Origin: a virus
Direction: 5' to 3' (one strand)
IMG/VR virus record: IMGVR_UViG_3300020175_000005
Span: 1 to 64,000 of that record
Length of the DNA: 64,000 bases
The translations under genes were made by a program, and so were the position numbers. This document shows positions 15,123 to 57,612 of this stretch, one piece after another (the first letter of the stretch is position 1; every line of letters begins with the position of its first letter). Under the pieces are notes generated by a model, which ran no database searches, was not told where the DNA came from, and worked only from the letters and a program-made list of their open reading frames with translations.

Positions 15123-15764
15123 TTATGCTTTTATGACATCTTTTAGGCAAACGATGGTTTCAATTTTGATAGTAAATTTCTCGTTGAATCCCATCTTAAA
15201 TAAAAACATACCAGCTTCATTGTTTGTAAATATTGTAGGCATTGTTATCCAACTAGATGCAGTGGTATATGGCGTGACATTATAATATTGCGCACCGAAA
15301 TGTCCATTCATTCTGCTTTCTTTACCAGAAAATGTTTCATCTATAAACTCGAGAGCTCTTTCTGCATCATCAGTGGACGTATCAACATGCTTGTATGTTT
15401 TATATACCGACATTTTGTGCTTATATTGTCCATACCAGAGTTTTTCTCTTACAATGATCTGACGATCCTTGTCACGCAAATAATTGTAATGATCTTGATT
15501 TATCAATCCAACCACTGATTGAACGTGCATGCGCAAGTATACATCAGATAGAATATAATCGATTACTTCATGATTATTGGTGTATACCGTATTTGTTACT
15601 TTGGATCCATAAACATAGTGATTTACTATTCTAAATCCCGATAAATGCTTAGGTATATATGCTGGAGAATGATACGGAAATGGTCCTATTTTAAACGCAG
15701 TATGGTACTTTCCATAGTATAGTTTAGTTGCAGGGCTCCAATTCTTGTGCTCAACCTTTTTCAA
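15123..15764 (-). CDS. hypothetical protein
   Basis: 213-aa ORF with duplicated KL(Y/W)YG.Y motif. Confidence 0.7.
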   Translation of the reverse strand: MKKVEHKNWSPATKLYYGKYHTAFKIGPFPYHSPAYIPKHLSGFRIVNHYVYGSKVTNTVYTNNHEVIDYILSDVYLRMHVQSVVGLINQDHYNYLRDKDRQIIVREKLWYGQYKHKMSVYKTYKHVDTSTDDAERALEFIDETFSGKESRMNGHFGAQYYNVTPYTTASSWITMPTIFTNNEAGMFLFKMGFNEKFTIKIETIVCLKDVIKA

Positions 15765-18039
15765 TTGCTATTTCTCCATCAACCAATTTAATATGGATTG
15801 TGAAGGATTTCGGATTATCTAACATAAATTTCGCTAAGGGAAGTTTGATCTTTTCATTAATCAAACGTGCTAGTGGACGGGCTCCCATTGCGGGATCATA
15901 GCCTTCAGTCTCCAACATAGTAATAACTGCTGGATCCCAATCCAGTAAGATGTGTCTTCCTTGTACGTATCCTTCTAGCTGTGCTAGGAATTTCTTAACG
16001 ATGCGTTTCATATTCTCTGGCTTGAGTGAATTGAATCTCACAATTCCATCAAGTCGGTTACGAAACTCAGGAGCAAAGAAATTATTAATCGCTTCATCTA
16101 CTGCACGATGGTTAAACGTTTCCTCGTTGAAGCCAACCTTTTTAATTGCACCATCTTTTGCACCCAAGTTACTCGTCATAATAATAATAGAGTTTTTAGC
16201 ACTTACCATTTTGCCTGTGCTTGATGTAATTGTGCCTTCATCTAGCAAACTTAGTAGTACACTCATCAAATCAGGATGTGCCTTTTCAACTTCATCAAGC
16301 AATAGTATACAGTTGGGATTATCTTCCAGGTTACTGATAAGTAACCCATCACCTGCTTTGCCATCACCATGCCCTACATATCCAGGAGGTGAGCCGATTA
16401 ATTTTGATACAGTGTGGCGTTCTTGATACTCTGCCATATCATAACGTACAAGTTTCATACCCATACCTTGGCTAAGGCGCTTGGCGAGTTCTGTTTTACC
16501 TACACCGGTCGGTCCTGCAAACAAGTAACTTGCTACTGGACGGTTTGGATCTTTCAACCCAGCAACACTAACTGTGATTGCATCAGTAACCTTGTCAATT
16601 GCTTGGTCCTGTCCAAACACTGTATTTTTCAAATACTCTTGTACTTCAGTGTGCTTTTTAACAATTGGATCTGAAGATTTCGTTCCCAGGTGTTCTTGTG
16701 GAATACCAGTCAAACGTGACACTTCCATACGGACTTCGTCCTCGTCAATAACAGTACTACGTTCCTCTTCAGGTAGTATTTTATTAAATGCACATGCACG
16801 ATCCAAGATATCAAATGCTTTGTCTGGTAGTTTTTTGTTAAAAATATATTCAGCACTTAGATCTACCGCTAGATCAGCAGCTTCTGGAAGAATCTCAACA
16901 TTGTGGTATGATTCATATCCAGCTAAACTGTTGCGTAAAATTTCCCTTGCGTCTTCTTTGCTTGGTTCATCAACTTGAATTTTAGTAAATCTGCGGGCTA
17001 ATGCAGTTTCCTTTTCAAACATTTTGCGATATTCTTCGTCAGTCGTTGCACCAATCACTTTAAGTTTTCCACTAGTCAAGCTAGGCTTCAGCATATTGCC
17101 AGCATCCATGCCGCCTCCGCCTGTGCTACCGGCTCCAATGATCATATGAATCTCATCAATAAAAAGCACAACATCTTCAACTTGTTCTAACGCTTCTGCT
17201 AGTTGTTTAATACGTTCCTCAAAGTCACCACGATACTTTGTGCCTGCAACTAATTTAGCCATGTCAAGACTCATAACAACTTTGTCTTTCATGGTGTCAG
17301 GAACACTACCTTCCTCGATAAGTTTAGCAAGTCCTTCAACGATTGCTGTTTTACCAACACCGCTACCGCCAACAAGAACTGCATTGCTTTTCTTTTTGCG
17401 GGCAAGTGTCTGCACTAGGTCACGCAATTCTTGGCGACGACCAACTACATCTTCATAATCCTGGCTAGCTACATTCATATCAACACAAAATTGCGCTAGA
17501 GTCTGAAATGCTTCAGCGTTCCGTTGTAAATTAGACTTTTTAGAATCATTAGCAATTTTAGCAGGCTGTCGACTTTTTGCATATCCATCACTTAAATTAG
17601 AAGATGCTGTCTGCGACATGGCATCCACAATCCAAGATGAAACTTTTTTCTTATCAAGTCCCATTTCGTAGCTAAATTTTACAGTTACACTATTTTCTTC
17701 ACTTAGAATACTCAACATTAGATCATATAAGTTAATTCCATGTTTACCTTGAAACAATGCTTGTGTTAATGCACGATTGAATACACGTTCTAGCATTTGT
17801 GTTTTACGTGGTTGAGATTCAGCAGTTTCATCATAAACAAGCTCTTTGCAATCTTCATGCAGATACAACATTAATGCTTCCTGAAGACCTTGAGCATCTG
17901 CCGCCACTTCATAGCACATTGATTTAATTGACGGTTCGTCAAGAACCACTAATGCCAAATGTTCAATTGTCACATACTCGTGATTAAACTTCTTGGCTAA
18001 TCCAATAGATTGGACTACTAATCTTTCAATATCTGTCAT
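15751..18039 (-). CDS. clpA: ATP-dependent Clp protease ATPase subunit ClpA
   Basis: Clp N domain (HEYVTIEHL), two AAA+ modules (GGSGVGKT, GPTGVGKT), KYRGDFEER, GSPPGYVG, VGF loop, no ClpB coiled coil. Confidence 0.93.
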   Translation of the reverse strand: MTDIERLVVQSIGLAKKFNHEYVTIEHLALVVLDEPSIKSMCYEVAADAQGLQEALMLYLHEDCKELVYDETAESQPRKTQMLERVFNRALTQALFQGKHGINLYDLMLSILSEENSVTVKFSYEMGLDKKKVSSWIVDAMSQTASSNLSDGYAKSRQPAKIANDSKKSNLQRNAEAFQTLAQFCVDMNVASQDYEDVVGRRQELRDLVQTLARKKKSNAVLVGGSGVGKTAIVEGLAKLIEEGSVPDTMKDKVVMSLDMAKLVAGTKYRGDFEERIKQLAEALEQVEDVVLFIDEIHMIIGAGSTGGGGMDAGNMLKPSLTSGKLKVIGATTDEEYRKMFEKETALARRFTKIQVDEPSKEDAREILRNSLAGYESYHNVEILPEAADLAVDLSAEYIFNKKLPDKAFDILDRACAFNKILPEEERSTVIDEDEVRMEVSRLTGIPQEHLGTKSSDPIVKKHTEVQEYLKNTVFGQDQAIDKVTDAITVSVAGLKDPNRPVASYLFAGPTGVGKTELAKRLSQGMGMKLVRYDMAEYQERHTVSKLIGSPPGYVGHGDGKAGDGLLISNLEDNPNCILLLDEVEKAHPDLMSVLLSLLDEGTITSSTGKMVSAKNSIIIMTSNLGAKDGAIKKVGFNEETFNHRAVDEAINNFFAPEFRNRLDGIVRFNSLKPENMKRIVKKFLAQLEGYVQGRHILLDWDPAVITMLETEGYDPAMGARPLARLINEKIKLPLAKFMLDNPKSFTIHIKLVDGEIAIEKG

Positions 18040-18713
18040 TTTTTAAACCTTGTTATGAATTCCTGTTTTTGTTTTTCAGTAGCAAGAGCTGGAATTTTTA
18101 CTTGTACTACTATATGCAAGTTGCCTCGCTTGTGCTTTTTTCTGTCCAGTAAACCAAATTGCTCAATAACAAACTGGCTTTTGTCAGTTGTGCCTGGTGC
18201 GATTGACAATGGTATAGTATCACCACATGGTGTTGTAACATCAATTTTTCCGCCGCACATTGCATCGATAATATCTAACTCTAAATCCAGTATACAGTTA
18301 AAACCGTGTCTTGTAAAGTGTTTATTTTTAAGTTCATGTATATTTAAGATATATTTTTTACCTTGGGCATTGACTTTAAACTTGTCACCTAGCTTTGCAC
18401 CGGGGGGAATACTTAATTGTATATCACCTACTTCTGGCACACTAATAATTTCGTTATTGACGCCGTGTATTTGCTGATATATGCTTAATTGTATGTTTAT
18501 TAACTTTAGATCTTGTCTGGGAACAATCGGAACATAAGTTTTATTTTTAAGTTGCTCATATGCTGTTTTGACTAACATAAACATTTCAGGATCTCCGCCA
18601 AATTTATCTGGGTGGTACCTTAATGCTTTTACTTTGTATGCAGCCTTGATTTCATCAAGAGTAGCCGATGTTTTAATTCCCAAAAGTTTCCAAGGATTCT
18701 TGTCAATTTTCAT
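18036..18713 (-). CDS. DnaJ/CbpA-like chaperone
   Basis: J-domain HPD motif plus DnaJ C-terminal domain; no zinc finger. Confidence 0.85.
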   Translation of the reverse strand: MKIDKNPWKLLGIKTSATLDEIKAAYKVKALRYHPDKFGGDPEMFMLVKTAYEQLKNKTYVPIVPRQDLKLINIQLSIYQQIHGVNNEIISVPEVGDIQLSIPPGAKLGDKFKVNAQGKKYILNIHELKNKHFTRHGFNCILDLELDIIDAMCGGKIDVTTPCGDTIPLSIAPGTTDKSQFVIEQFGLLDRKKHKRGNLHIVVQVKIPALATEKQKQEFITRFKK

Positions 18714-18768
18714 AGTGCGCCTCTTTCTAAACTTATTTATTGAAGGCACCTATCTAGTTAAATGTGTG

Positions 18769-19119: not shown

Positions 19120-19534
19120 CTGTGTTATTACCTGATAGTATTTCAAAACATGAAAATACTTCATTGGTTCCTATGTTAATTTCGTTTTCAATGTATTCTG
19201 GGTCTTCAATTGCACGTTCACCTACATTGAGATAGCGGCCGTCAGTTCCACGCTGTAGTAAAGATTCTAAGTCTTGCACTCGCTGTCTACTAGCGGTAAA
19301 GTCATCATTTAATGTATTGAGGGTGGTCCCCATAATAGCAATATCTCTTTTTAGAGACATAGTTGCTGATTGTTGAGAGCGTAACGCTTCTTCAAGTCTT
19401 GCTTGATTTTCAGCATATTGTATAATTGCCGCTTGACTGTCTCGATAATACCAGTATGCAACACCGGAAAATGCTGCGAATGCCGCAAACATAATTAAAT
19501 AAACTTTTAATTTTCCCATGATTTTAAACATCAT
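19055..19534 (-). CDS. inner-membrane spanin (Rz-like)
   Basis: N-terminal TM helix, coiled coil, C-terminal cysteines. Confidence 0.7.
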
Positions 19535-19749
19535 TTATACCTAAAAGTAATACGTCCTTTGGAAAGATCGTAAGGTGTCATTTCAACATCAACGACATCG
19601 CCTTGTAATATTTTAATTCTATTTTTACGGATTTTTCCGCTTATAATACCAAGTATAACATTTCCAGATTCTAGTTCTACTTTAAATGTAGCACCAGGTA
19701 GACACTCTATAACAGTGCCTTTCATTGCAATTGGATCTTCTTTTGCCAT
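19531..19749 (-). CDS. infA: translation initiation factor IF-1
   Basis: [13 protein letters not shown]...[32 protein letters not shown]. Confidence 0.96.
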
Positions 19750-24080: not shown

Positions 24081-24380
24081 TCAATGATTTTTGTTGAATT
24101 TTTTGTAAAGACCAGTTAAGTCCACTGGTTGACTGTTTTCTTTGGGGATAAGTTTATTTTTATTTAACAGAACCTTGTATGCGCCAGTGTTTGGATCCAT
24201 ACGTGAGCATGATTTGGTATATTGATTATTGTGTACCCAAGCGACTAGTTCAGATCCAATCTGTCCATGCCCAGTGATAATTACAGTACTTTTGCTGCCA
24301 TTATGATAGCAGTTAGCGACATGTTGATTAAACTTTCTCCAAGCACTATGTACAGTATAACCATGCAAATCTAAAGTCAT
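24081..24380 (-). CDS. standalone Smr domain protein
   Basis: LDLHGYT, VIITGHG, NTGAY motifs; start at MTLDLHG (ATGA overlap). Confidence 0.85.
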   Translation of the reverse strand: MTLDLHGYTVHSAWRKFNQHVANCYHNGSKSTVIITGHGQIGSELVAWVHNNQYTKSCSRMDPNTGAYKVLLNKNKLIPKENSQPVDLTGLYKKFNKNH

Positions 24381-24574
24381 CCGCCGCCTTGGAATCTTCC
24401 ATCCCTTGGCACATACCAATTCTTTTGATTATGTATTTTTCCCATAAGGGAAGTGATTTCACGTACAGTATCGAAGTCTCCACGGTTACTTGCCATAGAG
24501 ATCATATTTAGAAGTGCCTTTTCAATAAGAGCTAGTTCAGCTACTGATATGTTAAATTGTTCGTTGGGCTTCAT
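24377..24574 (-). CDS. hypothetical protein
   Basis: Part of an ATGA-coupled chain; LMGKIHNQKNWY. Confidence 0.7.
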   Translation of the reverse strand: MKPNEQFNISVAELALIEKALLNMISMASNRGDFDTVREITSLMGKIHNQKNWYVPRDGRFQGGG

Positions 24575-24774
24575 AATTTCATCACAAACTCCATGCCACT
24601 AAAATTAGCAACATAAACACCAGGCTTGATGCGATGGAAATTTAATGGAATAGTTTCAAAAGCACATCGTATTGTACCGTTTTGTTGACTAATAAAATCA
24701 ACTTCTACTTCCTGGTCACGATCAGTGCACCATACTTTGATACGATCAGGTATAGTAATTTTTCCATTTTTCAT
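24571..24774 (-). CDS. hypothetical protein
   Basis: Part of an ATGA-coupled chain. Confidence 0.7.
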   Translation of the reverse strand: MKNGKITIPDRIKVWCTDRDQEVEVDFISQQNGTIRCAFETIPLNFHRIKPGVYVANFSGMEFVMKL

Positions 24775-24965
24775 TTTTTTTCCTCATCAAAAGGAACGAC
24801 TACTGCGTTCTTCCAAATTTTTGAAGCTTCTAAGGCTTCATCTACAGTGTCATATGTTTGTACTTGTAAATCCCAACATCTGCCACCATTATCCTTTGTT
24901 ACATATATAACATCATCAGGAGAAAGTTCCAATAGTATTGCCCACTTGTGGTCCGAGGTTGTCAT
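24771..24965 (-). CDS. hypothetical protein
   Basis: Part of an ATGA-coupled chain. Confidence 0.7.
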   Translation of the reverse strand: MTTSDHKWAILLELSPDDVIYVTKDNGGRCWDLQVQTYDTVDEALEASKIWKNAVVVPFDEEKK

Positions 24966-25360
24966 CGTCTCATACTCGCAATGTCTTTTGCGTCTTCTTT
25001 TTTATCAGCAAAGATTGGAACCATGTTTGATTTGTGCATGGTTGCGATGCCAAGCAACTGTCTTTCACCGCTATAAGTGTTACCTTCACGGGCTGGACCA
25101 TGTCCTGCAATCTGATCGCTAGTTGGCACGGTATTGCGACTATCTGACTTATAATCTGGGATACCATGAATACCTAGGCGCTTTCCTTGTGCATTACGTT
25201 TGGCTTTTAATTCTAATTGTTCGGGATGTACTCCCATTTTACGCAGATATTTATCGTGATCCGCTTCTGCTTTTAATTGCTTGGCAGTTTTTTTACGATT
25301 GGATTTTTTACTGTTGTATTTTGTTGTGGTCATATAAGGACCAACTAAGTGCATAGACAT
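24962..25360 (-). CDS. conserved basic phage protein
   Basis: GIATMHKSNMVPIF...DIASMRR; GGAGG RBS. Confidence 0.8.
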   Translation of the reverse strand: MSMHLVGPYMTTTKYNSKKSNRKKTAKQLKAEADHDKYLRKMGVHPEQLELKAKRNAQGKRLGIHGIPDYKSDSRNTVPTSDQIAGHGPAREGNTYSGERQLLGIATMHKSNMVPIFADKKEDAKDIASMRR

Positions 25361-25428: not shown

Positions 25429-25998
25429 TTAACCATCCCATAGTTGGTCGGCGTCTCTCCAGTCGCCCTGTACATAATTAATGATCACACTATATCTCAA
25501 GTCAGTAACAACTTCAGGCTTAACACCATGAATAATTTCGCCGCCTGCGTGAGTCATCCATCCAGTGTTGTTTACAAATGGAACAGTATAGAATTGTGTA
25601 TCCCAATCCTTGTATATTGTTGTACCCCAATTTGGTTCACCGTCACCCATATAAATTTGCAAAGTGATTAGTTTTTCAGGTATGTCGATGTGCTTGTCTA
25701 GATGACTTCCCAGATTATCCGCAACCAGTTCAACACGTAACTTCCCATGAGTACAGTCGACACCAGTAATATCAGTAAACAAGTCTTTTTTATTCAAATA
25801 TGGTTCAAAAACTGAACGGATGTCAGCTGAGCTATTCTTAGTAACAAATGTTCTAATCGAACTTGCATCTCCACGATTGCCATTGATATCAATCGGCGTT
25901 TGTGGAACATGATTCATAATAATTTGTTGTTCTTCTTGGTTGAAGACTTTTTTTACATGGAACCACTTGCCTGGCTCTGTGTGTAGATCAATCTGCAT
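25429..25998 (-). CDS. 2OG-Fe(II) oxygenase
   Basis: HxD (KHID), distal H (IHGV), R-x-S (RYS). Confidence 0.8.
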   Translation of the reverse strand: MQIDLHTEPGKWFHVKKVFNQEEQQIIMNHVPQTPIDINGNRGDASSIRTFVTKNSSADIRSVFEPYLNKKDLFTDITGVDCTHGKLRVELVADNLGSHLDKHIDIPEKLITLQIYMGDGEPNWGTTIYKDWDTQFYTVPFVNNTGWMTHAGGEIIHGVKPEVVTDLRYSVIINYVQGDWRDADQLWDG

Positions 25999-27202
25999 CG
26001 TTTTTTAAGCCTTCTGCTAGCAACGGCAAGTAATCATCAACATATCTTTCTCGATATTGATCTTGGGCTTTAGTGTATCTCTGTAACCTGTCATACATAA
26101 CGTCAACCGGCTCACGCTCAAGCATTGTCAAGCAATCGTTAATAACACGATGTTCATTGGGATCTGCAATTTTTTCATTTTCCAACAAGCGTTGAATATT
26201 TTCCTTGGCCACTTCTTTGAAGTTCGCTGGACAATTACGTGCCTGAAAATGTTGAGGTCCTACTAATACACGCATATTTACATGTCCGCGCCCGAAGTAT
26301 TTACTGACGTATTCATAAAACTCATATAGGTTATTTGCGTTGTATACCTGGAAGCTGCTGTTCACACTAACATAAAACCAAGTATGGTTTCTTTCTGCAT
26401 TTGCATATGATGCCAATTCTTCTACAAAGTTATCAAAGTCGTTCCATGAAAAAGCACCATCACTGCGCATGTACTCAAACAAGTCGCCGACTGCATCCAT
26501 ACTAAGATCAAAATTTAGCTTCTTGAATATTTTAAATCTATCAAGTTGTTTGATACTAACTTTACTGCCGTTAGTGGTAATACTAATACGAATCTTTGAC
26601 GGATCAGCATATTCTTCCAATAAGTCAATTGCACGCCAAATACTGTCACCCATAAATGGTTCGCCGCCTGTGATCCAAATACTTACAACATCTTTTAGTT
26701 TGTGTTTGTTTGCAAGTAAAAATTCTTCAACATTGTTGATATTTTTATGATTTTCTGGCTCATGCTTGTGCCATGGAAAATCGTTTTCTTGCAACCAGCG
26801 ATGCTCAGGTATTAAGCTATTACTGTATCTAGGACTGCACATACGACACTTAAAGTTGCAAACGTTGTTGAAGTTTAAGAATAGGTGCTTAATAGTATTG
26901 TCAGTGATTTGGGGATTATCCCATGCATCATCAGAAAAGTTTTTTCTTGCATCACCATAAAGCCAATTCTGGCGTTGACTTCTAACACCAGATTCTTCTT
27001 TCATCTTACAGTTAATACAGCCTTCGTCATCCCATTCTCCGCGAAGCATGTCTTTTCTTAATTTTTGGAAACTTGGATTATCCCAATCCAAATCTTCACG
27101 ATTAGACATATATTCTTCACTCATCATACAACGAGTCAAAGCACCAGTTGGGTGTAAACTCACTGCATTGAAAGGAATAGGACACCATGAGTCACTGTGC
27201 AT
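25988..27202 (-). CDS. radical SAM protein with N-terminal SPASM/twitch-like domain
   Basis: CNFKCRMC, TGGEPF, ITTNGS; start at MHSDSWCPIPF. Confidence 0.9.
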   Translation of the reverse strand: MHSDSWCPIPFNAVSLHPTGALTRCMMSEEYMSNREDLDWDNPSFQKLRKDMLRGEWDDEGCINCKMKEESGVRSQRQNWLYGDARKNFSDDAWDNPQITDNTIKHLFLNFNNVCNFKCRMCSPRYSNSLIPEHRWLQENDFPWHKHEPENHKNINNVEEFLLANKHKLKDVVSIWITGGEPFMGDSIWRAIDLLEEYADPSKIRISITTNGSKVSIKQLDRFKIFKKLNFDLSMDAVGDLFEYMRSDGAFSWNDFDNFVEELASYANAERNHTWFYVSVNSSFQVYNANNLYEFYEYVSKYFGRGHVNMRVLVGPQHFQARNCPANFKEVAKENIQRLLENEKIADPNEHRVINDCLTMLEREPVDVMYDRLQRYTKAQDQYRERYVDDYLPLLAEGLKNDAD

Positions 27203-27221
27203 GTTGCCTTTTTTTAAGTGA

Positions 27222-28076
27222 TCAGTCATTAGCGATTGATGCCTTGAACAAGTATCCACTGTGTACCCACATCTCTTGTCCTGTTTCGTTCTCCACAAAC
27301 CACCAAGTACCCTGGCGTTGAATGACTTCAACTTTACTATCTAGAGCGAGTTTATCTACGACATCAAATTTAGTACCTGGTCCGCTTCTTCCGTTAAGAT
27401 AGTTGGATACCTTGTGTACTTTCCAAACCCAATCAATATCAACATCATTACGACTGTTGTTAATCAAATCATAAACTCGTCCATCCATGCATGGTCCTGG
27501 ATCTGTTTTGCGTCCTGGTGCAATCATATCATGGCCCACTGCTTCCATAAGAGTGTACTCTGCCATCATCTCCTGCCCTACTGCAATAAGTGCATTAACC
27601 TGCTCAGGCGTAAAGGGAACCCACCCAAAAACTTGCCCGTTTGGATTGTTGGGGTGTGGTGCTTCAATAATGTTGGAGTCGTTAATTGTTTCTCCCCACC
27701 ATGCCTTGAAGTTTCCGTTTGCTGTTTTAGTAAGCGGACCTGGATTGCATACTTCAATACCAATTGAATGTTTATTGAGGTTTGTCATGCCTGCCCAACT
27801 ACTTTTGCCTGCATGCCATGCTTTGCGATCTAGTTCAACATTCTGTGCCCATGTGCCATCAGTATCCAAGCATAAATGCGCTGATGTTTTAGCTGACGGT
27901 TTTTGAAAATATTGAGCTGTGCCTTTTGCACTACTTTTACCTGCTGTATAGTGAATTACCAAAAACTTTGGTTCAATTTTGTCACCTTGGTTTGGTGTTG
28001 GATAAAAGTCTACCTGTTGCCAATCACCACCATCTTGGATAGTGTAGAGCAATCCGTTTTTAATTTTATATTCCAT
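27222..28076 (-). CDS. N-acetylmuramoyl-L-alanine amidase (endolysin) with C-terminal SH3b domain
   Basis: VIHYTA, SAH, AWHAG, SIGIE, GH..IAPGRKTDPG; C-terminal LNGRSGPGT..W..V.....WVH. Confidence 0.9.
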   Translation of the reverse strand: MEYKIKNGLLYTIQDGGDWQQVDFYPTPNQGDKIEPKFLVIHYTAGKSSAKGTAQYFQKPSAKTSAHLCLDTDGTWAQNVELDRKAWHAGKSSWAGMTNLNKHSIGIEVCNPGPLTKTANGNFKAWWGETINDSNIIEAPHPNNPNGQVFGWVPFTPEQVNALIAVGQEMMAEYTLMEAVGHDMIAPGRKTDPGPCMDGRVYDLINNSRNDVDIDWVWKVHKVSNYLNGRSGPGTKFDVVDKLALDSKVEVIQRQGTWWFVENETGQEMWVHSGYLFKASIAND

Positions 28077-28280: not shown

Positions 28281-28377
28281 TGGAGATGGGGAGGGAATCG
28301 AACCCTGCTTGAACACTCTGCTTCATCCGCCTGCCCTGGATTTAACGAAACAGCATAGCACACCTTGCCAGCCCATC
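28281..28377 (-). ncRNA. tRNA-like RNA with aberrant, extended anticodon arm
   Basis: GATGGG/CCCATC-T-CCA acceptor; T-arm AGGG-TTCGATT-CCCT; D-like hairpin TGGCA/TGCTA; 9-bp CTGTTTCGT/ATGAAGCAG arm. Confidence 0.7.
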
Positions 28378-28388
28378 AGTTGTATTTA

Positions 28389-28465
28389 TGGTACTCCCCG
28401 AGGGACTCGAACCCCCAACCAAAGCGTTATGAGCGCTCTGCTCTAACCAATTGAGCTAGAGGAGT
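28389..28465 (-). tRNA. tRNA-Ile2/Met (CAT)
   Basis: Cloverleaf, loop CTCATAA, CCA end; C4-G69 and C5-G68 suggest a TilS substrate (Ile2). Confidence 0.9.
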
Positions 28466-28472
28466 ATTATTT

Positions 28473-28560
28473 TGGCAGACAGGGTGGGATTCGAACCCAC
28501 GGAACCTTTCGGTTCGCCGGATTAGTAATCCGGTGCCTTAAGCCTCTCGGCCACCTGTCC
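28473..28560 (-). tRNA. tRNA-Ser (ACT)
   Basis: CCGGA-TTACTAA-TCCGG anticodon arm, long variable arm, G73, CCA. Confidence 0.9.
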
Positions 28561-28566
28561 TAAAAA

Positions 28567-28764: not shown

Positions 28765-28787
28765 ATATGTTTTTTACTTCCTTGTTT

Positions 28788-28872
28788 TGGTACCCGCGGC
28801 CGGACTCGAACCGGCACGCCATGAAGGCCACAGATTTTAAGTCTGTTATGTCTACCATTCCATCACGCGGGC
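28788..28872 (-). tRNA. tRNA-Leu (TAA)
   Basis: Loop CTTAAAA, variable arm, CCA. Confidence 0.95.
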
Positions 28873-28875
28873 AAT

Positions 28876-29178: not shown

Positions 29179-29193
29179 CGTTTCTTCCTTTAT

Positions 29194-45955: not shown

Positions 45956-46305
45956 TTTAAATAATATGGATTAGCAAATCCACGCTCCACCAATGTATCA
46001 TTTATATTAGTCGTTTCCTGTGTTTCAGGATCAATAGAATATATAATTCCCAAGATCCTTCCAAACTTTCCTCGTTTATTTAATATAGTTTCAACAATAA
46101 ATTCAGAGGTCAATAATTCAGTTAAGCATTGTTTTGATCCCAAGCCTAATATTTTTTCTTCTTCATTTTTAGATCTACTAGTGGGAGTATCAATACCATA
46201 TAATCGGATCCGCTGTTTGACAAAAACACTAAATCCAAGATCAATCTCAGCATCGATTGTGTCACCATCAATGACTCTAATTAATTTTGCTTTATATGTA
46301 TACAT
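45952..46305 (-). CDS. thermonuclease (SNase) family protein
   Basis: VIDGDTID, RIRLYGIDTP, GKFGRILG. Confidence 0.9.
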   Translation of the reverse strand: MYTYKAKLIRVIDGDTIDAEIDLGFSVFVKQRIRLYGIDTPTSRSKNEEEKILGLGSKQCLTELLTSEFIVETILNKRGKFGRILGIIYSIDPETQETTNINDTLVERGFANPYYLK

Positions 46306-46390
46306 GCGCTTTACCTTTGTTTAAAAAAAGATACACATGTATCTTCCATATATTATTTATTACTTTATCAGCAATCCAAATATTACTACT

Positions 46391-47074
46391 TTATTTTTTA
46401 TTATCCTGTATCCAACGTTTGGCGGCTGGCATCTTGGGAGGTGTACCCAAAAATTTACGTAGATTTTTGTCTACTTCTTGGAAGTTTTCTGCGCGATCTG
46501 GATCTTCCAATCCACCCGAATTATCAACAACTAGGAAATTTGCCGCGCCAAACAGTTGTTGAAATTTCATAAGGTTCTGTTGTACAGATTGCCACATTTT
46601 AGTGACCATCTCAGCGGGTATACTTCTTGCTCGAGCTTGGTTACGTTGTTGTGCTACTGCTTCGCTGGTGTTGACAAAAATCATCAGTGTGTCATAGCCA
46701 AGTTCTTTGAGTGCTTTGTTTGCTTTGGATACTTTGGCAACATCTTTACCAGTGCCGTCGATAATAAGACCCAAGCGTCCATCCAGGTAGATATTTTCAC
46801 GCTTTTTAGTAAGTGACTTGGCACGGTCTCGTGTCTCTTGTCCTTGTGGACTAGCAATAACTTCTGGATCACTCATATCCATGTCATGCTTTTGCATCAA
46901 ATATTCGTAGATTTCATCACTATTGACACTTTTAAGACCAGAACCAGCAAGCATCCGGTTGGCGACAAAACTTTTGCCACTGCCAGGACCACCTGCTAGG
47001 AATACTGCTTTAAAAATGTGAGGATCGTTGGGACCTTCTTCAATCTGCTGTTCTAGTATATCATGTATTTTCAT
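46391..47074 (-). CDS. P-loop kinase (AAA_33/zeta-toxin-like)
   Basis: AVFLAGGPGSGKS, VNSD, LIIDGTG, RNQARAR; MKIHDI N-terminus. Confidence 0.85.
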   Translation of the reverse strand: MKIHDILEQQIEEGPNDPHIFKAVFLAGGPGSGKSFVANRMLAGSGLKSVNSDEIYEYLMQKHDMDMSDPEVIASPQGQETRDRAKSLTKKRENIYLDGRLGLIIDGTGKDVAKVSKANKALKELGYDTLMIFVNTSEAVAQQRNQARARSIPAEMVTKMWQSVQQNLMKFQQLFGAANFLVVDNSGGLEDPDRAENFQEVDKNLRKFLGTPPKMPAAKRWIQDNKK

Positions 47075-47082: not shown

Positions 47083-47931
47083 TTATGCAGGGTTGTCAAT
47101 TAGGATTACACAAAATGAACTACTTACTAGTGAATTATTTGTAGTACTGTAAGCACGAACTTCAATATCATCACATTCATTTACTACAATTGGGATATTA
47201 TAGTTTTTAGCATATGTTGTTGCGCTTACTGTGATAATATCACGAGCATTCCAACTACCGTCGCCTGGTGCATCTGGATCACGTGTCATAAGCATTGCAA
47301 TTGCATCTGTATTTTGTTTACCAGCACCAACAGTCCATTGTGTAATATAACCTGTCTTACCTGCCGGAATTGTATATTGTGCCATAAACGTTTGTCCACG
47401 TCCTGCTGCATTTGAACCTGTTCCATCAATGCCGATAATTGCTAATACTGTTGATGTATCATCACTAGTAATACTGATAGTTCCTTCGTTAACACCACTA
47501 GAACCTGCTGTTAATATTTTAACACGAAACACACGTTTAAATGCTCCAATGGTGGTTGTGCCAACATCAACTGTTTCCACAACAACTTCACCTGCTTGAT
47601 TCATGCCTTGTATCTCTACAATTCTAGCACCAGAACCAGCTGGCGCATCTTCTATGCTATCACTTGTTACAGTAAGTGTTTCGGCTGTTTCAATGTATGT
47701 GTAAATTCCGCCGCCGTCCCAGATGGTTTCTTTATCACTGTCTACGTCTAGGTTCATACCAAACTTTTCAATATGGCTTACGCCGTCAATATCGCCGTCT
47801 GCTAGTTGTATACCCCAACCAAAGTTATTTCCAATAACTCGTAGTGCAGGAAGTCCTGCAGCGTTGTATTCCATTGCGCGGTTTGGTCCGCTTAAATTTG
47901 GATCTTTATGTGGATGTTGATAATCACTCAT
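47083..47931 (-). CDS. probable virion structural protein
   Basis: Beta-rich; KFG.N.DVD...ETIW.GG...Y, GAR.VEIQG, GQTFMAQYTIPAG. Confidence 0.7.
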   Translation of the reverse strand: MSDYQHPHKDPNLSGPNRAMEYNAAGLPALRVIGNNFGWGIQLADGDIDGVSHIEKFGMNLDVDSDKETIWDGGGIYTYIETAETLTVTSDSIEDAPAGSGARIVEIQGMNQAGEVVVETVDVGTTTIGAFKRVFRVKILTAGSSGVNEGTISITSDDTSTVLAIIGIDGTGSNAAGRGQTFMAQYTIPAGKTGYITQWTVGAGKQNTDAIAMLMTRDPDAPGDGSWNARDIITVSATTYAKNYNIPIVVNECDDIEVRAYSTTNNSLVSSSFCVILIDNPA

Positions 47932-47942: not shown

Positions 47943-48419
47943 TTACCATTTTCTACAAGACCAATAACGTGCTTTTGTCTTTGGTCCTGGATTGTCACAA
48001 TTATGTCTTGCTCTAAAACTCTTACGTGCTTTGGGATTATTTTTTCGAATCTTCATAGCTTTGCCTTTGACACTGCTTCCGCCGTGACCAAAGTTAACTT
48101 TCTTAACGTTTCCTGTTTTTGGGTCCTTAACATATACTTTAAACTTCTTTACATCGCCTTGCATTGGCTTGTTTAGTTTAACAGTACGTCCTTGATATTC
48201 CGCTTCAAAAAGTTCACTTTCGCACAGGCTATAACCCAAGTAACCATAATCTTCAAAAAATTCTTCGTCACATTCATAAGTGTATTCTGTTTCACTTACT
48301 TTAACACAATTATTAACACGCTTGCCACCTTTCATTTTGGTGCCATCCTTACGGTAGCCCTTCCAACATGATGGATCTAAACGTTGTTCTGCTTCTGTTA
48401 CGAATTCATCAATTTTCAT
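47943..48419 (-). CDS. conserved T4-like phage protein
   Basis: CWKGY...G.K......NCVK; EAEYQGR.VKLNKP...KSFRARH.C...ARYWSC; start MKIDEF. Confidence 0.8.
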   Translation of the reverse strand: MKIDEFVTEAEQRLDPSCWKGYRKDGTKMKGGKRVNNCVKVSETEYTYECDEEFFEDYGYLGYSLCESELFEAEYQGRTVKLNKPMQGDVKKFKVYVKDPKTGNVKKVNFGHGGSSVKGKAMKIRKNNPKARKSFRARHNCDNPGPKTKARYWSCRKW

Positions 48420-48488
48420 TTTATGCTTCCTTAGATGATAAAGGGGAGCAGAAGCTCCCCTACTATACATCTATTTATGCATATTTAA

Positions 48489-49103
48489 TTATTTTTTAAC
48501 GATAACCTTGTCTGCCAAGCCCCATTCAACTGCTTCTGATGCTGATAGGAATGTATCAAACTTCATTGTCTCAAACATATCTTCATATGTCTTGCCCGCT
48601 GTATTGTGCTTGACATATGTTTCAGTAAGCTGACGATTTAGTTTTTTGCTTTCTTCAAAGCTGCGGATTGCGTCTTCCATCTCAAGTTCTTGTACATGTA
48701 CACTGCCGCTTGTACCACGTGTACCTGAGCTAACACGGTGAATCATTGTACGACTGTTGGGCAATACAAGACGCTTGCCGGGTTCACCTGCCATTGCCAA
48801 GAAGCTGCCCATACTGCATGCTTGTCCCATTACAATTGTTGATACTGGTGCATTGATAAACTGCATTGTATCGTAAATCGCAAGGCCGCTTGTTACACTA
48901 CCGCCTGGGCTGTTAATATAGAAGTTGATATCTTCTTCACTGTTTTGTGATTCTAGGAAAAGCATTTGTGCTACTACTAAGTTTGCACTGTTATCGTTTA
49001 CTTCGCCGTTGAGCATTACAATACGGTCTTTGAGTAGACGGCTGTAAATGTCGTATGAACGTTCACCACGTCCTGTTTGTTCTACCACCATAGGTACTAG
49101 CAT
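48489..49103 (-). CDS. clpP: ATP-dependent Clp protease proteolytic subunit ClpP
   Basis: [34 protein letters not shown], catalytic Ser in ACSMGS, His in MIH. Confidence 0.96.
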
Positions 49104-49160: not shown

Positions 49161-50033
49161 TCAATATATTTTTTTTGTATTGTACCTAGCTTGTAAATCA
49201 AAGATAATACTGTAACGGGTATCTAAATTTGGATCTGGGTTGTGTGTCATGCCATGTGTAGTAACTTTCCAGCCGCTTCGTTCTGCATGCTCGCCGAACA
49301 TCCACAGCATCTGGTTGTTTTCCAAACCATCCATTGTTTCCCATTTCTCAGTTTTTGTATTTTTTGCATGAAACTCCACATAATTTTCTCCTAGATGTAA
49401 ACCAGCCAATGTCTCGTCACAATGCTCGTCACCAAAACGTTCAGTATTGTGAGCTCTGTGTTCTGATCTATTTGCATCATTGGCTGTAGGAGTACTGTAC
49501 TCAATAATCATTAGTTTATGCAATACACGTCCCCAATCGGGCTTTTGTTCACTATAGCATTCGTCGGTATAATATTCAAGAATTGGTTTAAAATCCGTAT
49601 GCATGTTTACAAAATACTGCAATTCTTCAGGTGCCGTTTCATTTAACTTGTCCGCAGTCCAATCAAAGATATACACTTTGCGGCGCTGGACATAGTCATC
49701 AGCATCGCCAATATCACCATGCCAGTCAGTTGGTCCCACCATCGTGTCTATATCATAACCGTACACAGGTCCCTGATGCCAGTGAGAAAAACTTTTATCA
49801 GGAATGTTTTCATCCTTCCAATTCTCAACTACTGGAGATTCATCATTCTCAATATTATTGATTTCAAAAAATACATCTGTATTCATCTTCTTCATTAGAC
49901 GTTCAGCCATCGCAAACCGATCTTTATACTTGGTTGCCAATAGTTGACTATCCACAATAGGCCACTCTCCAGTTTCCTGCATTGACCTCAATTCTTCATT
50001 TTGAAATACTTTTTCATTCATATTGTTTTGCAT
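49161..50033 (-). CDS. 2OG-Fe(II) oxygenase-like protein
   Basis: HCD, distal HG, RYSIIF. Confidence 0.7.
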   Translation of the reverse strand: MQNNMNEKVFQNEELRSMQETGEWPIVDSQLLATKYKDRFAMAERLMKKMNTDVFFEINNIENDESPVVENWKDENIPDKSFSHWHQGPVYGYDIDTMVGPTDWHGDIGDADDYVQRRKVYIFDWTADKLNETAPEELQYFVNMHTDFKPILEYYTDECYSEQKPDWGRVLHKLMIIEYSTPTANDANRSEHRAHNTERFGDEHCDETLAGLHLGENYVEFHAKNTKTEKWETMDGLENNQMLWMFGEHAERSGWKVTTHGMTHNPDPNLDTRYSIIFDLQARYNTKKIY

Positions 50034-50343
50034 ACTTTGCTTTTACCTTTCCAGCTTTCGTAAAGAATTCTTTTCTTACACTTTGTAAACTGCCTCCAAC
50101 CCGTCCGGGATATTCACCGAGATATGTTCCTGCGCTTAAATCATCTTTACTGATATAATGCTTATGAAAATGTTCAATATCATCCCATACAGCTAGCATC
50201 GTTTTTCCCATCTCATCAAAGAATCCATCACTTAATATAGCATCATCTTCTTTATAATAGGCATATGACGCCATGAGGTACCATGGGACCATCATATTTA
50301 TATTTTTTCTAAAAAGAGATGCAGCATGGTTATCAAGATTCAT
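50014..50343 (-). CDS. small protein resembling the NAD-ligase (LigA) N-terminal Ia helix-hairpin
   Basis: SYAYY..DDAILSD..FD motif; start MNLDNH. Confidence 0.6.
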   Translation of the reverse strand: MNLDNHAASLFRKNINMMVPWYLMASYAYYKEDDAILSDGFFDEMGKTMLAVWDDIEHFHKHYISKDDLSAGTYLGEYPGRVGGSLQSVRKEFFTKAGKVKAKYAKQYE

Positions 50344-50497
50344 CAGTAAATCCTTTTTTAACATGCTTGGGCCTACGCTTGTATTCATTTGCAGACTTAA
50401 TAGATTTTTCTCGAAACGGACCGCCGGGATCTCTTACCTGCTGTGCCAACCAATTACGTTGCTTGGGCGCTTGGGGACGTTTCACTTTCTTGGACAT
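50333..50497 (-). CDS. basic 54-aa protein, ArfA-like
   Basis: Manual translation ...RNWLAQQVRDPGGPFREKSIKSANEYKRRPKH...; AAGGA RBS. Confidence 0.6.
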   Translation of the reverse strand: MSKKVKRPQAPKQRNWLAQQVRDPGGPFREKSIKSANEYKRRPKHVKKGFTDES

Positions 50498-55029: not shown

Positions 55030-56382
55030 ATGGAAAAATTTATAGGTACTGAAACCCCATCTGAATTCATTAAACATAACTTGGTAGTAGGAATTCTTGC
55101 CAACAATCGTATCAAAGACCAAATAGCTGACGGATACTTGAAAAACCTAACTGAATTTTATACTCAGGAATTTTTCCTAGGAGGACTAACAGTAATATAC
55201 GGAGAAAATCCAGAAGACTTGATGGCTCAAACAAGCGAATTAGGAAAATCACATCTAGTTGCATTAAAGGTCGGTAATATCACTACATCTTTCCTAGACA
55301 CTCTCATTAACTTTTTTGAAAGGTTTTATGATGATGAAGTTTTAATTGGTCACATCTTAGACAGGGGAGATAGCTATTATGAGATACACCCGCAATTCTT
55401 CCTAATAGATATTAAATGGTGGGAAAGTGTTGGAAAACCAATGTTTGGTATTCGTAGACACAACACTGAGTGGGAAGCTACTATTCCCGAAAGAAGCAAT
55501 GACAATTGGCATGACGATTACACTCCTAAATGGATTAAAAATGGATCAACAAAAAGAACATATACCTCCAAAGAGTATGGCTGGAACATTATATCTCTTG
55601 CATTAGATAGTGGCAAAAAAGTAGGGGTATGGCAAAAGTATATGCGCGACAGTAAAAAATATCTTTATCCCGAAGTCGAAGAAGCATATGCAGGAAACAT
55701 TAATGAAGTTCTTAGATTGTTAGATACATCAAAGTTTTTTTGCTCAAATACCGAAGACATTCATGTTAGTGGAAACATTGTTGCAGATACAGTAATATGT
55801 ACCGCAGGTGGACCATCGCCAATTCTACATGCGTTTGCTTATAACATGAAATCTGGAGGAAACTTAGTAGTAGTAGATGTTAGTGAGCTTGCATTAAATA
55901 TTATGCAAGATATGTTTGCTACATGGGATGGCAGAGATTACCATAGTTGGCTAGAAGAATATAGAAAAAACTCTTCAGCAATTCGTGGTCGTATGATAGC
56001 ATTTGAAAGAGTGGAAAAGCAAAGTAAATGGATGGACGAAATTCCAGGTTTTGAAGAGTGGTATAATGAAGTTTGGCCGCATATCAATAAACAGTTCATT
56101 AAACAAAGTATTTTAGATGTTGACCAATTCACAAAACGCATTGATAGTTTTTTCCAACCTGATAATATAGTAGTAGTGCATACCAGTAATATTTTCCATT
56201 ATTTGCCAACTTCATTGTTTTACAACTATAATATAAGATGGCATTTGTTTTGGAAACTAAAAAATTATGTAACGAGAAAACAAGCTACTGTTGAAGGTCT
56301 AAAAGTTATTCAGAGAATACTGTTTAATGATCATCATAGAAAGATAATGGAGATTTTACCATGGTACAAGAAGATAGACTAG
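55030..56382 (+). CDS. hypothetical modification-cluster protein
   Basis: GHILDR..YYEIHPQF, HDDYTP.W; 450-aa ORF with AGGAG RBS. Confidence 0.75.
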   Translation: MEKFIGTETPSEFIKHNLVVGILANNRIKDQIADGYLKNLTEFYTQEFFLGGLTVIYGENPEDLMAQTSELGKSHLVALKVGNITTSFLDTLINFFERFYDDEVLIGHILDRGDSYYEIHPQFFLIDIKWWESVGKPMFGIRRHNTEWEATIPERSNDNWHDDYTPKWIKNGSTKRTYTSKEYGWNIISLALDSGKKVGVWQKYMRDSKKYLYPEVEEAYAGNINEVLRLLDTSKFFCSNTEDIHVSGNIVADTVICTAGGPSPILHAFAYNMKSGGNLVVVDVSELALNIMQDMFATWDGRDYHSWLEEYRKNSSAIRGRMIAFERVEKQSKWMDEIPGFEEWYNEVWPHINKQFIKQSILDVDQFTKRIDSFFQPDNIVVVHTSNIFHYLPTSLFYNYNIRWHLFWKLKNYVTRKQATVEGLKVIQRILFNDHHRKIMEILPWYKKID

Positions 56383-57110
56383 CAAAAGTTTTAGATTTCA
56401 TACAAGAATGCAAGCAACATAAACACTACGCATATATTGAGTCGCCGCCAGAAGCGTATAGTTATTGGAAAGAAATAAGACAAACACGACAGTTATATTT
56501 TAAATGGATCATGAAACACAGTAATTGTCCCAGTTTACGTTTGAGCATTGATATACCACACCGAGAAATACTAGCAGAAGCAGAAAATGCAAACGAATAC
56601 TTCGTAAAGCATCGTGGAAATAATCATCCTGGCTGGGAGAGTATGACATTGCATGGCCAAGGAATACATTATACCGACAACATAAAACAATATCCAGATG
56701 CGCCACAAGAATATAATTGGACTGAATTAACAAAATATTGTCCTATAACAACTGAGTGGTTCAAAGATGTGTGGCCTAATTCAGGCAATATGCAACGTGT
56801 TAGATTTATGATGCTGCGTCCTGGAGGTTGGATTACACCACATCAAGATTTAGATCGTCGAGAAATTAGTGCATTTAATATCGCTCTCAGCAATCCAGAA
56901 GGATGTGAATTTGCAATGGAAGATGCAAATATTATTCCTTGGAAACCAGGAGATGTTAGAGGGATTGATGTTGGGAGAAAGCACTGCGTATACAACGGAA
57001 GCAATCAGGATCGCATACATATGATTGTTCATGACAACTGGAGTCCAAACAAATATGACCTCGTTTGTCAAGCATATGATGACTTGTTAATAGAGAATAA
57101 CACTTTGTAA
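56361..57110 (+). CDS. aspartyl/asparaginyl beta-hydroxylase-like 2OG-Fe(II) oxygenase
   Basis: RVRFMML.PGG.I.PHQD, H.VYN.SN.DRIHMI. Confidence 0.85.
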   Translation: MVQEDRLAKVLDFIQECKQHKHYAYIESPPEAYSYWKEIRQTRQLYFKWIMKHSNCPSLRLSIDIPHREILAEAENANEYFVKHRGNNHPGWESMTLHGQGIHYTDNIKQYPDAPQEYNWTELTKYCPITTEWFKDVWPNSGNMQRVRFMMLRPGGWITPHQDLDRREISAFNIALSNPEGCEFAMEDANIIPWKPGDVRGIDVGRKHCVYNGSNQDRIHMIVHDNWSPNKYDLVCQAYDDLLIENNTL

Positions 57111-57111
57111 T

Positions 57112-57612
57112 GTGCGACTATTCTGTTGCTAGGTCAGTCGCCAACCCCCACGTGCTTAAATTAAGCCGCTAATGCCATTTCTGGCGCTTTATTTGCGTTT
57201 GCAATTAAAAAGTTTGTTCGCGGTAACGGCGCTTACATCCCGGTAACTCCACTCTTCTATCCTGCCTGTCGATCCTATTTCGACCCCATCATAAACACAC
57301 TATTCAAACCAAAGTAGGAAATCCATACTTCCTGTAATATTATATAATACGATTAGTATCATACAAAACCACAGTAGCCAAAATAACCAAAAGCCTAAAA
57401 ATCTGTACACCTTTTCCATAGGCAAATACTTTTCTAGAAGTGTAGTGATATCCCACACATATCTAAATTGTAGGAACCAACAAAACCATCTTACGTATTT
57501 GTTAGGTGTATTTTCTTTTGTTATCTTAGTCATTATTCCCTAATGTGTTTATGGTGGAGTCGCTGGGTACCGCCCCCAGGTCCAGTTCAGTCGTCAAATT
57601 GCTTCAACGTTA
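57112..57612 (-). ncRNA. ssrA: two-piece (circularly permuted) tmRNA
   Basis: Acceptor piece ...GGACCTGGGGGCGGTACCCAGCGACTCCACCA (CCA 57552-57554) precedes the coding piece GGGGTCGAAATAGGATCGAC (5' end 57287); G3-U70 pair; tag ANANKAPEMALAA* (57161-57202). Confidence 0.95.
57300..57533 (-). CDS. Trp-rich membrane protein inside the tmRNA intervening segment
   Basis: 77-aa ORF, AGGGA RBS, hydrophobic C-terminal half; stop codon lies in the closing stem. Confidence 0.65.
   Translation of the reverse strand: MTKITKENTPNKYVRWFCWFLQFRYVWDITTLLEKYLPMEKVYRFLGFWLFWLLWFCMILIVLYNITGSMDFLLWFE

Follow-up and report, generated by a model that had tools for sequence, protein, structure and literature searches.

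The first 64 kb (hereafter the window) of the 98.5-kb IMG/VR record IMGVR_UViG_3300020175_000005 carry genes for a transfer-messenger RNA (tmRNA), for the Clp proteins ClpX, ClpP, ClpA and ClpS, and for several chaperones and translation factors. We conclude that the window is probably the accessory arm of a T4-core jumbo phage with several separately inherited host-takeover modules. Comparison with related phages indicates that the Clp and rescue parts are inherited as separate modules and not as one circuit. A first-pass annotation had joined these parts, together with a standalone Smr domain and an ArfA-like peptide, into a single circuit covering almost the whole path from the sensing of collisions to degradation. 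That claim is unsupported, as the Smr protein is hookless, the ArfA assignment fails and SmpB is absent from the contig and from two complete relatives, and it is weakened further by a ClpX with GYAG and without RKH and by components that are not consistently found together. If true, a circuit encoded by the phage and leading from collision to degradation would be notable; the evidence points instead to a familiar jumbo-phage accessory repertoire made from separately inherited, host-dependent modules.

Clp and rescue genes appear to travel as separate modules

Gene identities were assigned by Pfam, NCBIfam and PDB searches. These searches upheld the ClpX, ClpP, ClpA, ClpS, J-domain, Hsp20, Smr-domain, IF1, IF3 and bS21 calls of the first-pass annotation, and Rfam upheld its tmRNA with a tag ending in LAA and its 17 tRNAs; among the genes proposed there for confirmation by hidden Markov models, only the ArfA-like peptide was not recovered. 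What had been stated about the cellular homologues (cleavage of mRNA by SmrB at collided ribosomes, rescue of non-stop complexes by tmRNA or ArfA, degradation of LAA-tagged proteins by ClpXP and ClpAP, and the service of ClpS in the N-degron pathway) is established knowledge.

For the comparison of gene content we used ten IMG/VR contigs with a ClpX 60-63% identical to that of the window (sister contigs), six of which were compared gene by gene with all open reading frames (ORFs) of the contig. We observed that the order 290-aa ORF, ClpP, kinase, staphylococcal-nuclease-like (SNase) protein, 625-aa ORF, orf145, ClpX, IF3, bS21, Hsp20, ClpS, cytidylyltransferase, exoribonuclease and IMPDH-like protein is maintained collinearly in every one of the six over the part that each covers, and that the proteins of this core block are 44-83% identical across the six. 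The run ClpA-DnaJ-...-PhoH recurs in sister contig G002, where IF1, Smr and the 436-aa neighbour of Smr have no counterpart despite the presence of both flanks. An alpha-type tmRNA was found on 5 of the 11 contigs of the ClpX clade, i.e. the window and four of the ten sisters (G002, G004, G008 and G009), while the complete genome of Agrobacterium phage Atu_ph07 (NC_042013) keeps the Clp set and yielded no tmRNA under two models. No Smr was found in 36 other ClpX-bearing IMG/VR contigs, and a search of 17 phage records, either related or bearing ClpX, did not find the 54-aa peptide previously called ArfA-like, which is also lacking in close sisters with intact flanks.

The useful outcome of this comparison is a sharper map. 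The parts fall into a conserved proteolysis and initiation block (ClpP...ClpX-IF3-bS21-Hsp20-ClpS) and a conserved ClpA/J-protein pair (ClpA-DnaJ), the members of which occur together; a tmRNA that often accompanies them; and, as sporadic additions that rarely do so, Smr, IF1 and the 54-aa peptide. The co-occurrence across related phages that the circuit called for therefore holds for the block and the pair, and is patchy for the tmRNA, Smr, IF1 and the 54-aa peptide. The tmRNA with its ALAA-ending tag is a frequent, not an obligate, companion of the proteolysis and initiation block.

The window belongs to a contig with a CheckV completeness of 27%. Its remaining 34 kb encode a ribonucleotide reductase, a DnaB-like helicase, a primase, a UvsW-like helicase, a clamp-loader-like AAA protein, a UvsX/RecA-like protein, a gp32-like protein and a T4-type large terminase (TerL). 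As the reductase, helicase, primase, UvsX-like, gp32-like and TerL genes stand on one contig, we concluded that it derives from a T4-core jumbo phage and that the Clp and tmRNA genes lie in its accessory-gene arm. The source is an uncultured phage of the Atu_ph07/Phosso kind, and its host is probably an alphaproteobacterium. No near-identical cultured phage was found, since a 19-kb part of the window, searched by megablast in 50,697 phage records, returned only a 60-nucleotide (nt) tRNA match. The ClpX is 44-45% identical to those of the cultured jumbo phages Atu_ph07 (44%), Phosso (of Sinorhizobium) and phage G. The two complete relatives used here, Atu_ph07 and Sinorhizobium phage Phosso (PV764938), each hold ClpP, ClpS, ClpA, a small Smr and bS21; their ClpA proteins are 42-43% identical to that of the window (Atu_ph07, 42%), and that of G002 is 66% identical. 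ClpX is directly adjoined by IF3 in the window, in Atu_ph07 (gp2, gp1) and in Phosso (520, 521).

The substrate entrance of ClpX is altered throughout a phage clade

The ClpX unfoldase (412 aa; 42428-43666, minus strand) matches Pfam zf-C4_ClpX (1.2e-11) and AAA_2, and scores 499 bits against NF003745, above the curated cut-off of 359. The C4 zinc finger, the Walker A and B motifs (GPTGVGKT, VDEID) and the IGF ClpP-docking loop that define the class are all present. When this protein was aligned to E. coli ClpX, we observed that pore-1 reads GYAG and not GYVG, and that a deletion of three residues removes RKH, the loop reading NKPQANPE. The GYVG sequence and the RKH loop (R228, H230), with which E. 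coli ClpX reads ssrA, are both missing from the phage protein; Y153 of pore-1 and S199 and V202 of pore-2 are retained.

We surveyed the 120 best homologue clusters, which are 58-100% identical to the window ClpX and come from metagenomic contigs of up to 322 kb. GYAG was present in 117 and the RKH-less 13-residue loop (PNKPxxxPE) in 113 of the 120, and the change is therefore conserved and clade-wide. Among the relatives, the loop reads GGRKN in Atu_ph07 and Phosso, and GGRKH in phage G and LR756511.

Fei et al. described ssrA recognition by E. coli ClpX as determined by Y153, V154, T199, V202, R228 and H230, with the pore-1 GYVG and the RKH loop (R228, H230) contacting the Ala-Ala-COO- degron (PMC7652416). 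In the same work, the R228A enzyme lost specificity for ssrA and gained it for the N-degron, and ssrA substrates are not degraded by human ClpX, in which 199 and 230 are Leu (PMC7652416). Because Y153, S199 and V202 remain in the phage ClpX, its recognition of ssrA may be weakened rather than lost.

Immediately upstream, the gene of a small conserved protein, orf145 (43644-44081, minus strand), overlaps the ClpX start by 23 nt. The protein is 44-49% identical in all six aligned sister contigs. Its AlphaFold2 model (pLDDT 74.6, pTM 0.74) was best matched by Foldseek against the PDB to response-regulator receiver domains (NarL, E 4e-4, TM 0.56), with RssB among the matches, and from this weak match (TM ~0.55) a receiver-like (CheY/REC) fold is predicted. 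It lacks the phospho-acceptor Asp of receivers. The receiver-domain proteins RssB and CpdR are adaptors of ClpX. By analogy with them, orf145 may be a partner or adaptor of the phage ClpX, and we offer this candidate as a lead only.

One might go further and propose that an undescribed, large jumbo-phage clade has re-engineered the entrance of its ClpX, which would be co-translated with orf145, IF3 and bS21 in the window and in six sisters, the seven contigs looked at; that the phage ClpXP no longer reads ssrA and is aimed by an adaptor at particular host or phage proteins; and that tmRNA-tagged products are left to the host proteases. Taken as a whole, this proposal is speculative, and we think it rather unlikely to hold. 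An RKH-less ClpX clade coupled to a receiver-like protein would give a direct route to asking if phages retune host-type AAA+ proteases.

ClpP, ClpA, ClpS and the chaperones

The ClpP proteolytic subunit (204 aa; 48489-49103, minus strand) is of the cellular type. It matches the full Pfam CLP_protease model at 3.8e-65 (219.6 bits; cut-off 20.2) and scores 255.7 bits against NF001368 (cut-off 249). Its Ser-His-Asp triad is intact and aligns with those of solved ClpPs, and among the sisters, the five contigs that extend this far have it at 69-71% identity. We rejected a prohead protease as the identity of this protein, because of the full-length cellular-type match above the ClpP cut-off and a head-maturation model score of 93 bits, lower than the required 120; a separate, weaker ClpP-like gene in Phosso was also counted against it. 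As compared to all the solved ClpPs aligned, an insertion of 10-12 residues lies just after the catalytic His, in the handle region. The ClpP open frames of Atu_ph07 and Phosso have the same length of 204 aa.

ClpA (762 aa; 15751-18039, minus strand) is a double-ring AAA+ unfoldase with the Pfam domains Clp_N, AAA, AAA_lid_9, AAA_2 and ClpB_D2-small. It has the architecture of its type, i.e. Clp_N, two AAA+ rings, a docking tripeptide and no ClpB middle domain. E. coli ClpA (758 aa) is the best PDB match, at 550 bits over aligned residues 10-740, and TIGR02639 is the best NCBIfam match, at 770 bits, which is under the equivalog cut-off of 993. Both Walker A/B pairs, KYR, GYVG and, at the IGL position, a VGF ClpP-docking tripeptide were read from the sequence.

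The N-degron adaptor ClpS (103 aa; 40569-40880, minus strand) matches Pfam ClpS at 4.8e-27 (94 bits; cut-off 23) and stays below the NCBIfam equivalog cut-offs (88.7 bits versus 112). In alignment with E. coli ClpS, its pocket keeps N34, D35, T38, M40 and H66, and D36 is replaced by E. ClpS was found in all six aligned sisters, in Atu_ph07 and in Phosso.

A J-domain co-chaperone (18036-18749, minus strand; Pfam DnaJ 1e-12, DnaJ_C 4.5e-19) overlaps the ClpA start by 4 nt, its likely true start being the ATG at 18713. HPD and DnaJ_C are present, with no G/F region or zinc finger as in a type I DnaJ, and the score against TIGR02349 DnaJ is 99 bits versus a cut-off of 377; the product is best regarded, from these features, as a J-protein and not an orthodox DnaJ. 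No Hsp70 (DnaK) was found in the contig, in Atu_ph07 or in Phosso. The small heat-shock protein Hsp20 (142 aa; 40924-41352, minus strand; Pfam HSP20 2.5e-18) is 77-83% identical in all six aligned sisters.

A two-piece tmRNA without a phage SmpB

A full-length two-piece (permuted) alpha-type tmRNA lies at 57111-57653 on the minus strand. It scores 108 bits against Rfam RF01849 (alpha_tmRNA) and 95 bits against RF04321 (tmRNA_permuted), for which the gathering scores are 50 and 47, respectively; ARAGORN did not find the permuted gene, and Rfam did. The alignment shows G3:U70 in the acceptor stem, the CCA end and, closed by a stop codon, a tag ORF that gives the tag ANANKAPEMALAA. The tags of the sisters are ANNNYAPEMALAA and ANDNYAPEMALAA, and that of Phosso, which also has a tmRNA, is ANDNVSTKVALAA. 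The APEMALAA end is common to the window and sister tmRNAs. The intervening segment differs greatly in length between relatives: in the window it measures ~265 nt and contains a 77-aa ORF, in Phosso it measures ~400 nt, and in G002 and G004, with tmRNA genes of just 362 and 333 nt, it shrinks to a few tens of nt. The window and G002 also differ in where the tmRNA stands with respect to clpX.

The first-pass annotation saw no SmpB in the window, and none was found in the whole 98.5-kb contig either. The search for smpB, sspB and release factors that it proposed beyond the window was likewise negative, no SmpB, RF-1 domain or SspB being present anywhere in the contig (27% of the genome), so this contig does not encode SmpB with its tmRNA as a self-contained trans-translation system would. 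SmpB is also absent from the complete Atu_ph07 and Phosso, and was not found in 32 of 33 other ClpX-bearing contigs. Of six ClpX-bearing contigs that are more distant and have a completeness of 70% or more, a tmRNA was found in two, and only G029 (IMGVR_UViG_3300045988_167287, 268 kb) has SmpB too: its tmRNA is at 143831-144242 (126 bits), its SmpB at 127522-127950 (180 bits) and its ClpX at ~205 kb.

Because no SmpB, RF-1 domain, SspB or Hsp70 was found, the kit appears to rely on the SmpB, DnaK and release factors of the host.

The Smr protein and the 54-aa peptide

The predicted minimal Smr-domain nuclease (24081-24380, minus strand) matches Pfam Smr at 1e-8 (35.7 bits; cut-off 25.7). A TTG-started ORF reaches 24419, the ATG at 24380 being the probable real start. 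The stop of the upstream ORF and this ATG overlap as ATGA, and 14 metagenomic homologues are 97-111 aa long; because of this overlap and these lengths, we consider the protein to be a 99-aa Smr-only domain. For the same reasons, which fit a separate gene, the 65-aa ORF upstream was rejected as a frameshifted N-terminal hook. Five genes stand head to tail at 24081-25360 on the minus strand with 4-nt stop/start overlaps (132, 64, 67 and 65 aa, then Smr).

DLH (the catalytic DxH) and TGHG (the GxG loop), the motifs of the SmrB domain, are invariant in the 15 members of the family, which argues for the phage Smr being an active nuclease. The N-terminal hook of SmrB (a '--xxxa' helix on uS2) is missing, as the Smr domain begins at residue 2 of 99. 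Beyond a variable linker, the C-terminal tail is conserved across the family (...VDLTGLYKKFNK) and might serve as a docking peptide. The NCBIfam SmrA and SmrB models give ~20 bits, far under their cut-offs (SmrB, 128), and phmmer against the PDB returned a single spurious match to a chemotaxis protein. The hook of SmrB wraps uS2, and an SMR-only truncation does not bind the ribosome (bioRxiv 10.1101/2021.08.16.456513). In Atu_ph07 and Phosso the Smr proteins have a hook-like N-terminal helix with EELELW and TERKLW, respectively.

The basic 54-aa peptide (50333-50497, minus strand) is the one that had been called ArfA-like, an assignment that our tests do not support. Nine further 50%-identity clusters were found at E≤1e-3 among 1.84 billion proteins, and in their alignment some positions are invariantly P, K, R, N, A or D, which speaks for a real small gene family. 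The peptide has no match in Pfam at E≤10; a six-frame search with Pfam ArfA (PF03889) gave no match at E≤1, and no KGKGS-type motif of the ArfA tail was seen in six frames. In the PDB, the family profile did not pick up ArfA chains at E≤10, and a single-sequence search of the PDB was likewise not significant. When compared by hhalign with E. coli ArfA and with an ArfA alignment, it gave a probability of only 4-6% (P 0.007-0.009), residues 15-49 of the peptide being weakly paired with 14-48 of ArfA (N, DP, FR, RK.KH). The peptide has neither a family model match nor the KGKGS segment that mark ArfA, and its homology to ArfA is unproven.

Initiation factors, bS21 and tRNAs

IF1 (72 aa; 19531-19749; Pfam eIF-1a 8.5e-24), IF3 (179 aa; 41896-42435; Pfam IF3_N and IF3_C) and bS21 (73 aa; 41691-41912; Pfam Ribosomal_S21 1.9e-13), all on the minus strand, exceed their NCBIfam equivalog cut-offs: TIGR00008 103.7 bits (cut-off 61), TIGR00168 126.8 bits (cut-off 60) and TIGR00030 47.3 bits (cut-off 29), respectively. 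bS21 has a basic N-terminal extension of ~10 residues and was found in the sisters, Atu_ph07, Phosso and LR756511. The apparent TTG start of IF3 overlaps the ClpX stop, and bS21 overlaps the end of IF3 by 17 nt; these overlaps suggest that ClpX, IF3 and bS21 are translationally coupled. Bacterial infC usually starts at AUU, for autoregulation.

The tRNAs of the window are 17 canonical ones by Rfam and 18 by ARAGORN, the additional one being an odd 97-nt tRNA-like element at 28282-28378. This element lies with Met, Ser, Leu and Arg tRNAs in a first cluster (28282-29270, minus strand; ARAGORN, 4 of 5 by Rfam), and 13 tRNAs form clusters 2 and 3 (58267-62837, minus strand; ARAGORN and Rfam). A promoter and terminator scan of 40.3-49.4 kb gave a signal barely over the shuffled expectation and was not used beyond the hairpins noted after bS21 and between Hsp20 and ClpS.

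What the modules may do, and the alternatives

In the explanation that we favour, the core block (ClpP ... orf145-ClpX-IF3-bS21, Hsp20 and ClpS) and the ClpA/J-protein pair would equip the phage with ATP-dependent proteolysis and chaperone capacity of its own, together with initiation factors by which it could bias the host ribosomes. The tRNA clusters would be a second module. The two-piece tmRNA, probably charged by the host alanyl-tRNA synthetase and delivered by host SmpB and EF-Tu, would free ribosomes stalled on broken messages and add the ...ALAA degron. Tagged proteins would be degradable by whichever protease reads ALAA, most probably the host ClpXP and possibly the phage ClpAP, and the phage ClpX with its remodelled entry loops would probably have a shifted substrate range. 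IF1, the minimal Smr nuclease and the small basic peptide would be sporadic extras. The modules would cooperate only loosely, sustaining protein synthesis and quality in a long infection, and would not form an obligate circuit.

The integrated circuit, in which Smr cuts at collided ribosomes, tmRNA and an ArfA-like peptide carry out the rescue and the phage ClpXP and ClpAP destroy the LAA-tagged products, countering host RNase defences or retargeting proteolysis, looks improbable to us. It is true that all the named classes except ArfA are present and that their motifs are intact (the ClpP triad, ClpX IGF, ClpA VGF, the ClpS pocket, the J-domain HPD, and DLH and GHG of Smr), and the tag ends in ALAA, conserved in the sisters, with a tmRNA on nearly half of the contigs of the ClpX clade. 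The phage also has both bS21 and Smr, and on the stalled ribosome SmrB touches bS21 with its SMR domain, the S21 and SMR genes being linked in some bacteria (bioRxiv 10.1101/2021.08.16.456513); in Phosso and Atu_ph07, the Smr genes lie near a polynucleotide kinase or CCA-adding enzyme. However, a hookless Smr resembles the SMR-only form of SmrB that lacks ribosome binding, the ArfA homology is unsupported, the contig has neither SmpB nor a release factor, with SmpB missing from Atu_ph07 and Phosso too, and the components are inherited apart from one another. The step from tag to protease suffers most. The pore loops of ClpA are kept, but it is established that ClpS diverts ClpA from ssrA substrates (Dougan 2002, as cited in PMC6102473). 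As the ClpX loops are altered and ClpS would turn ClpA away from such substrates, the degradation of phage-tagged proteins by phage Clp appears to be the least secure link of the proposed circuit.

The altered ClpX loops could also mean that the Clp set acts mainly outside trans-translation, on substrates chosen by the phage (host regulators, defence, replication, or virion assembly and packaged proteins), with the RKH-less, GYAG ClpX and orf145 providing the specificity. The loop changes in 113-117 of 120 clusters, as against RKN in Atu_ph07 and Phosso and RKH in phage G, speak for such retargeting, as does the exchange of ssrA for N-degron specificity by the R228A enzyme (PMC7652416). The conserved orf145 is translationally coupled to ClpX and has a predicted REC-like fold, as in RssB and CpdR, and Atu_ph07 has a Clp set without any tmRNA. 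Yet the fold match of orf145 is weak and the flavodoxin-like fold is very common, and with S/T199 and V202 of pore-2 and Y153 of pore-1 kept, some recognition of ssrA may remain. We consider retargeting possible, although unlikely.

Some observations weigh against the modular, host-dependent explanation that we prefer. SmpB or other partners could lie elsewhere, since the contig is only 27% of the genome, though the two complete relatives are without SmpB. G029 appears, from its gene content, to have a more complete rescue kit than the window, i.e. tighter kits exist. Finally, the APEMALAA end kept among the sisters and the frequency of tmRNA in the ClpX clade would both fit a genuine functional connection with Clp proteolysis.

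Other genes on the contig

PHROGs gave no function for the conserved neighbours at 47083-47931, 47943-48470, 49161-50033, 43644-44081 and 44078-45955. Between ClpP and ClpX, 45952-47074 (minus strand) encodes the SNase-like protein and an AAA_33/zeta-toxin-like kinase with a weak PHROG match to polynucleotide kinase; the two are 62-68% identical in the five sisters that reach them. An Rv2179c-like 3'-5' exoribonuclease is encoded at 38815-39354.

A DUF1127 small protein is encoded at 35190-35504 on the minus strand (Pfam 1.9e-10), its true start probably being an internal ATG; the family is typical of alphaproteobacteria. Radical-SAM/SPASM proteins are unusually many, five or six being encoded at 955-3316, 25988-27331, 32961-33827 and 59109-60192. 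Together with an Asp/Arg beta-hydroxylase (56361-57110, plus strand) and a class-3 lipase (32221-32958, plus strand), they could form a peptide- or RNA-modification set. Beyond the window, at 70290-71837 of the contig (minus strand), a 515-aa subtilase (Peptidase_S8, 4e-25), a further protease of this phage, adjoins the ribonucleotide reductase genes; sisters G001 and G006 lack a counterpart.

Comparison with known systems

The gene inventory of the window is already known in kind from published cultured relatives. Attai et al. (2018) described Atu_ph07 with seven Clp-family genes and DnaJ, ClpA (gp292) adjoining DnaJ (gp293), and proposed that these assist virion assembly, control replication and clear aggregates (PMC6102473). 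Genes for Clp proteins, DnaJ, Hsp20, S21 and IF3 stand in the published genomes of both Atu_ph07 and Sinorhizobium phage AP-J-162. The ClpP, ClpS, ClpA and ClpX of jumbo phages were discussed by Iyer et al. (PMC7824862), and both ClpP and ClpX have been identified in phage G virions (PMC12484599).

Atu_ph07 resembles the source phage as a jumbo T4-core myovirus with the ClpX-IF3 and ClpA-DnaJ adjacencies, ClpP, ClpS, bS21 and a small Smr. It differs in having no tmRNA, in a ClpX with GYVG and the RKN loop where the window has GYAG and no RKH, in an Smr with the N-terminal EELELW helix resembling the SmrB hook, and in the lack of an orf145 homologue beside clpX. Phosso shares a two-piece tmRNA of the alpha type, the ALAA end of its tag, the ClpX-IF3 adjacency, ClpP, ClpA, ClpS, Smr and bS21, and the lack of SmpB; its tag is a different one, its ClpX keeps GYVG and RKN, and its Smr is N-terminally extended and lies near a polynucleotide kinase. 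Similarly, Sinorhizobium phage AP-J-162 was reported to have a tmRNA, six Clp proteins, clpX beside IF-3, Hsp20, DnaJ, S21 and L7/L12 (PMC11242549). The huge phages of Al-Shayeb et al. (2020) share IF1, IF3, an N-terminally extended bS21, tRNAs and tmRNA, and include SmpB (PMC7162821). Clp proteins go unmentioned in that paper (0 occurrences in PMC7162821), whereas the full Clp pairing was described in the Atu_ph07 and AP-J-162 papers.

E. coli SmrB and the phage Smr belong to the same fold family, with DLH and GHG invariant across the phage family; the phage protein differs in being hookless at 99 aa, with a conserved C-terminal tail instead. The E. coli tmRNA-SmpB/ClpXP-SspB/ClpAPS pathway and the phage set consist of homologous component classes, and the LAA tag end, G3:U70 for alanylation, the IGF loop of ClpX, the Ser-His-Asp triad of ClpP and the N-degron pocket of ClpS are all kept in the phage. 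In contrast to that pathway, the contig is without SmpB, SspB and release factors, its tmRNA is permuted, its ClpX is RKH-less with GYAG, and the phage genes are scattered over 42 kb as separate modules.

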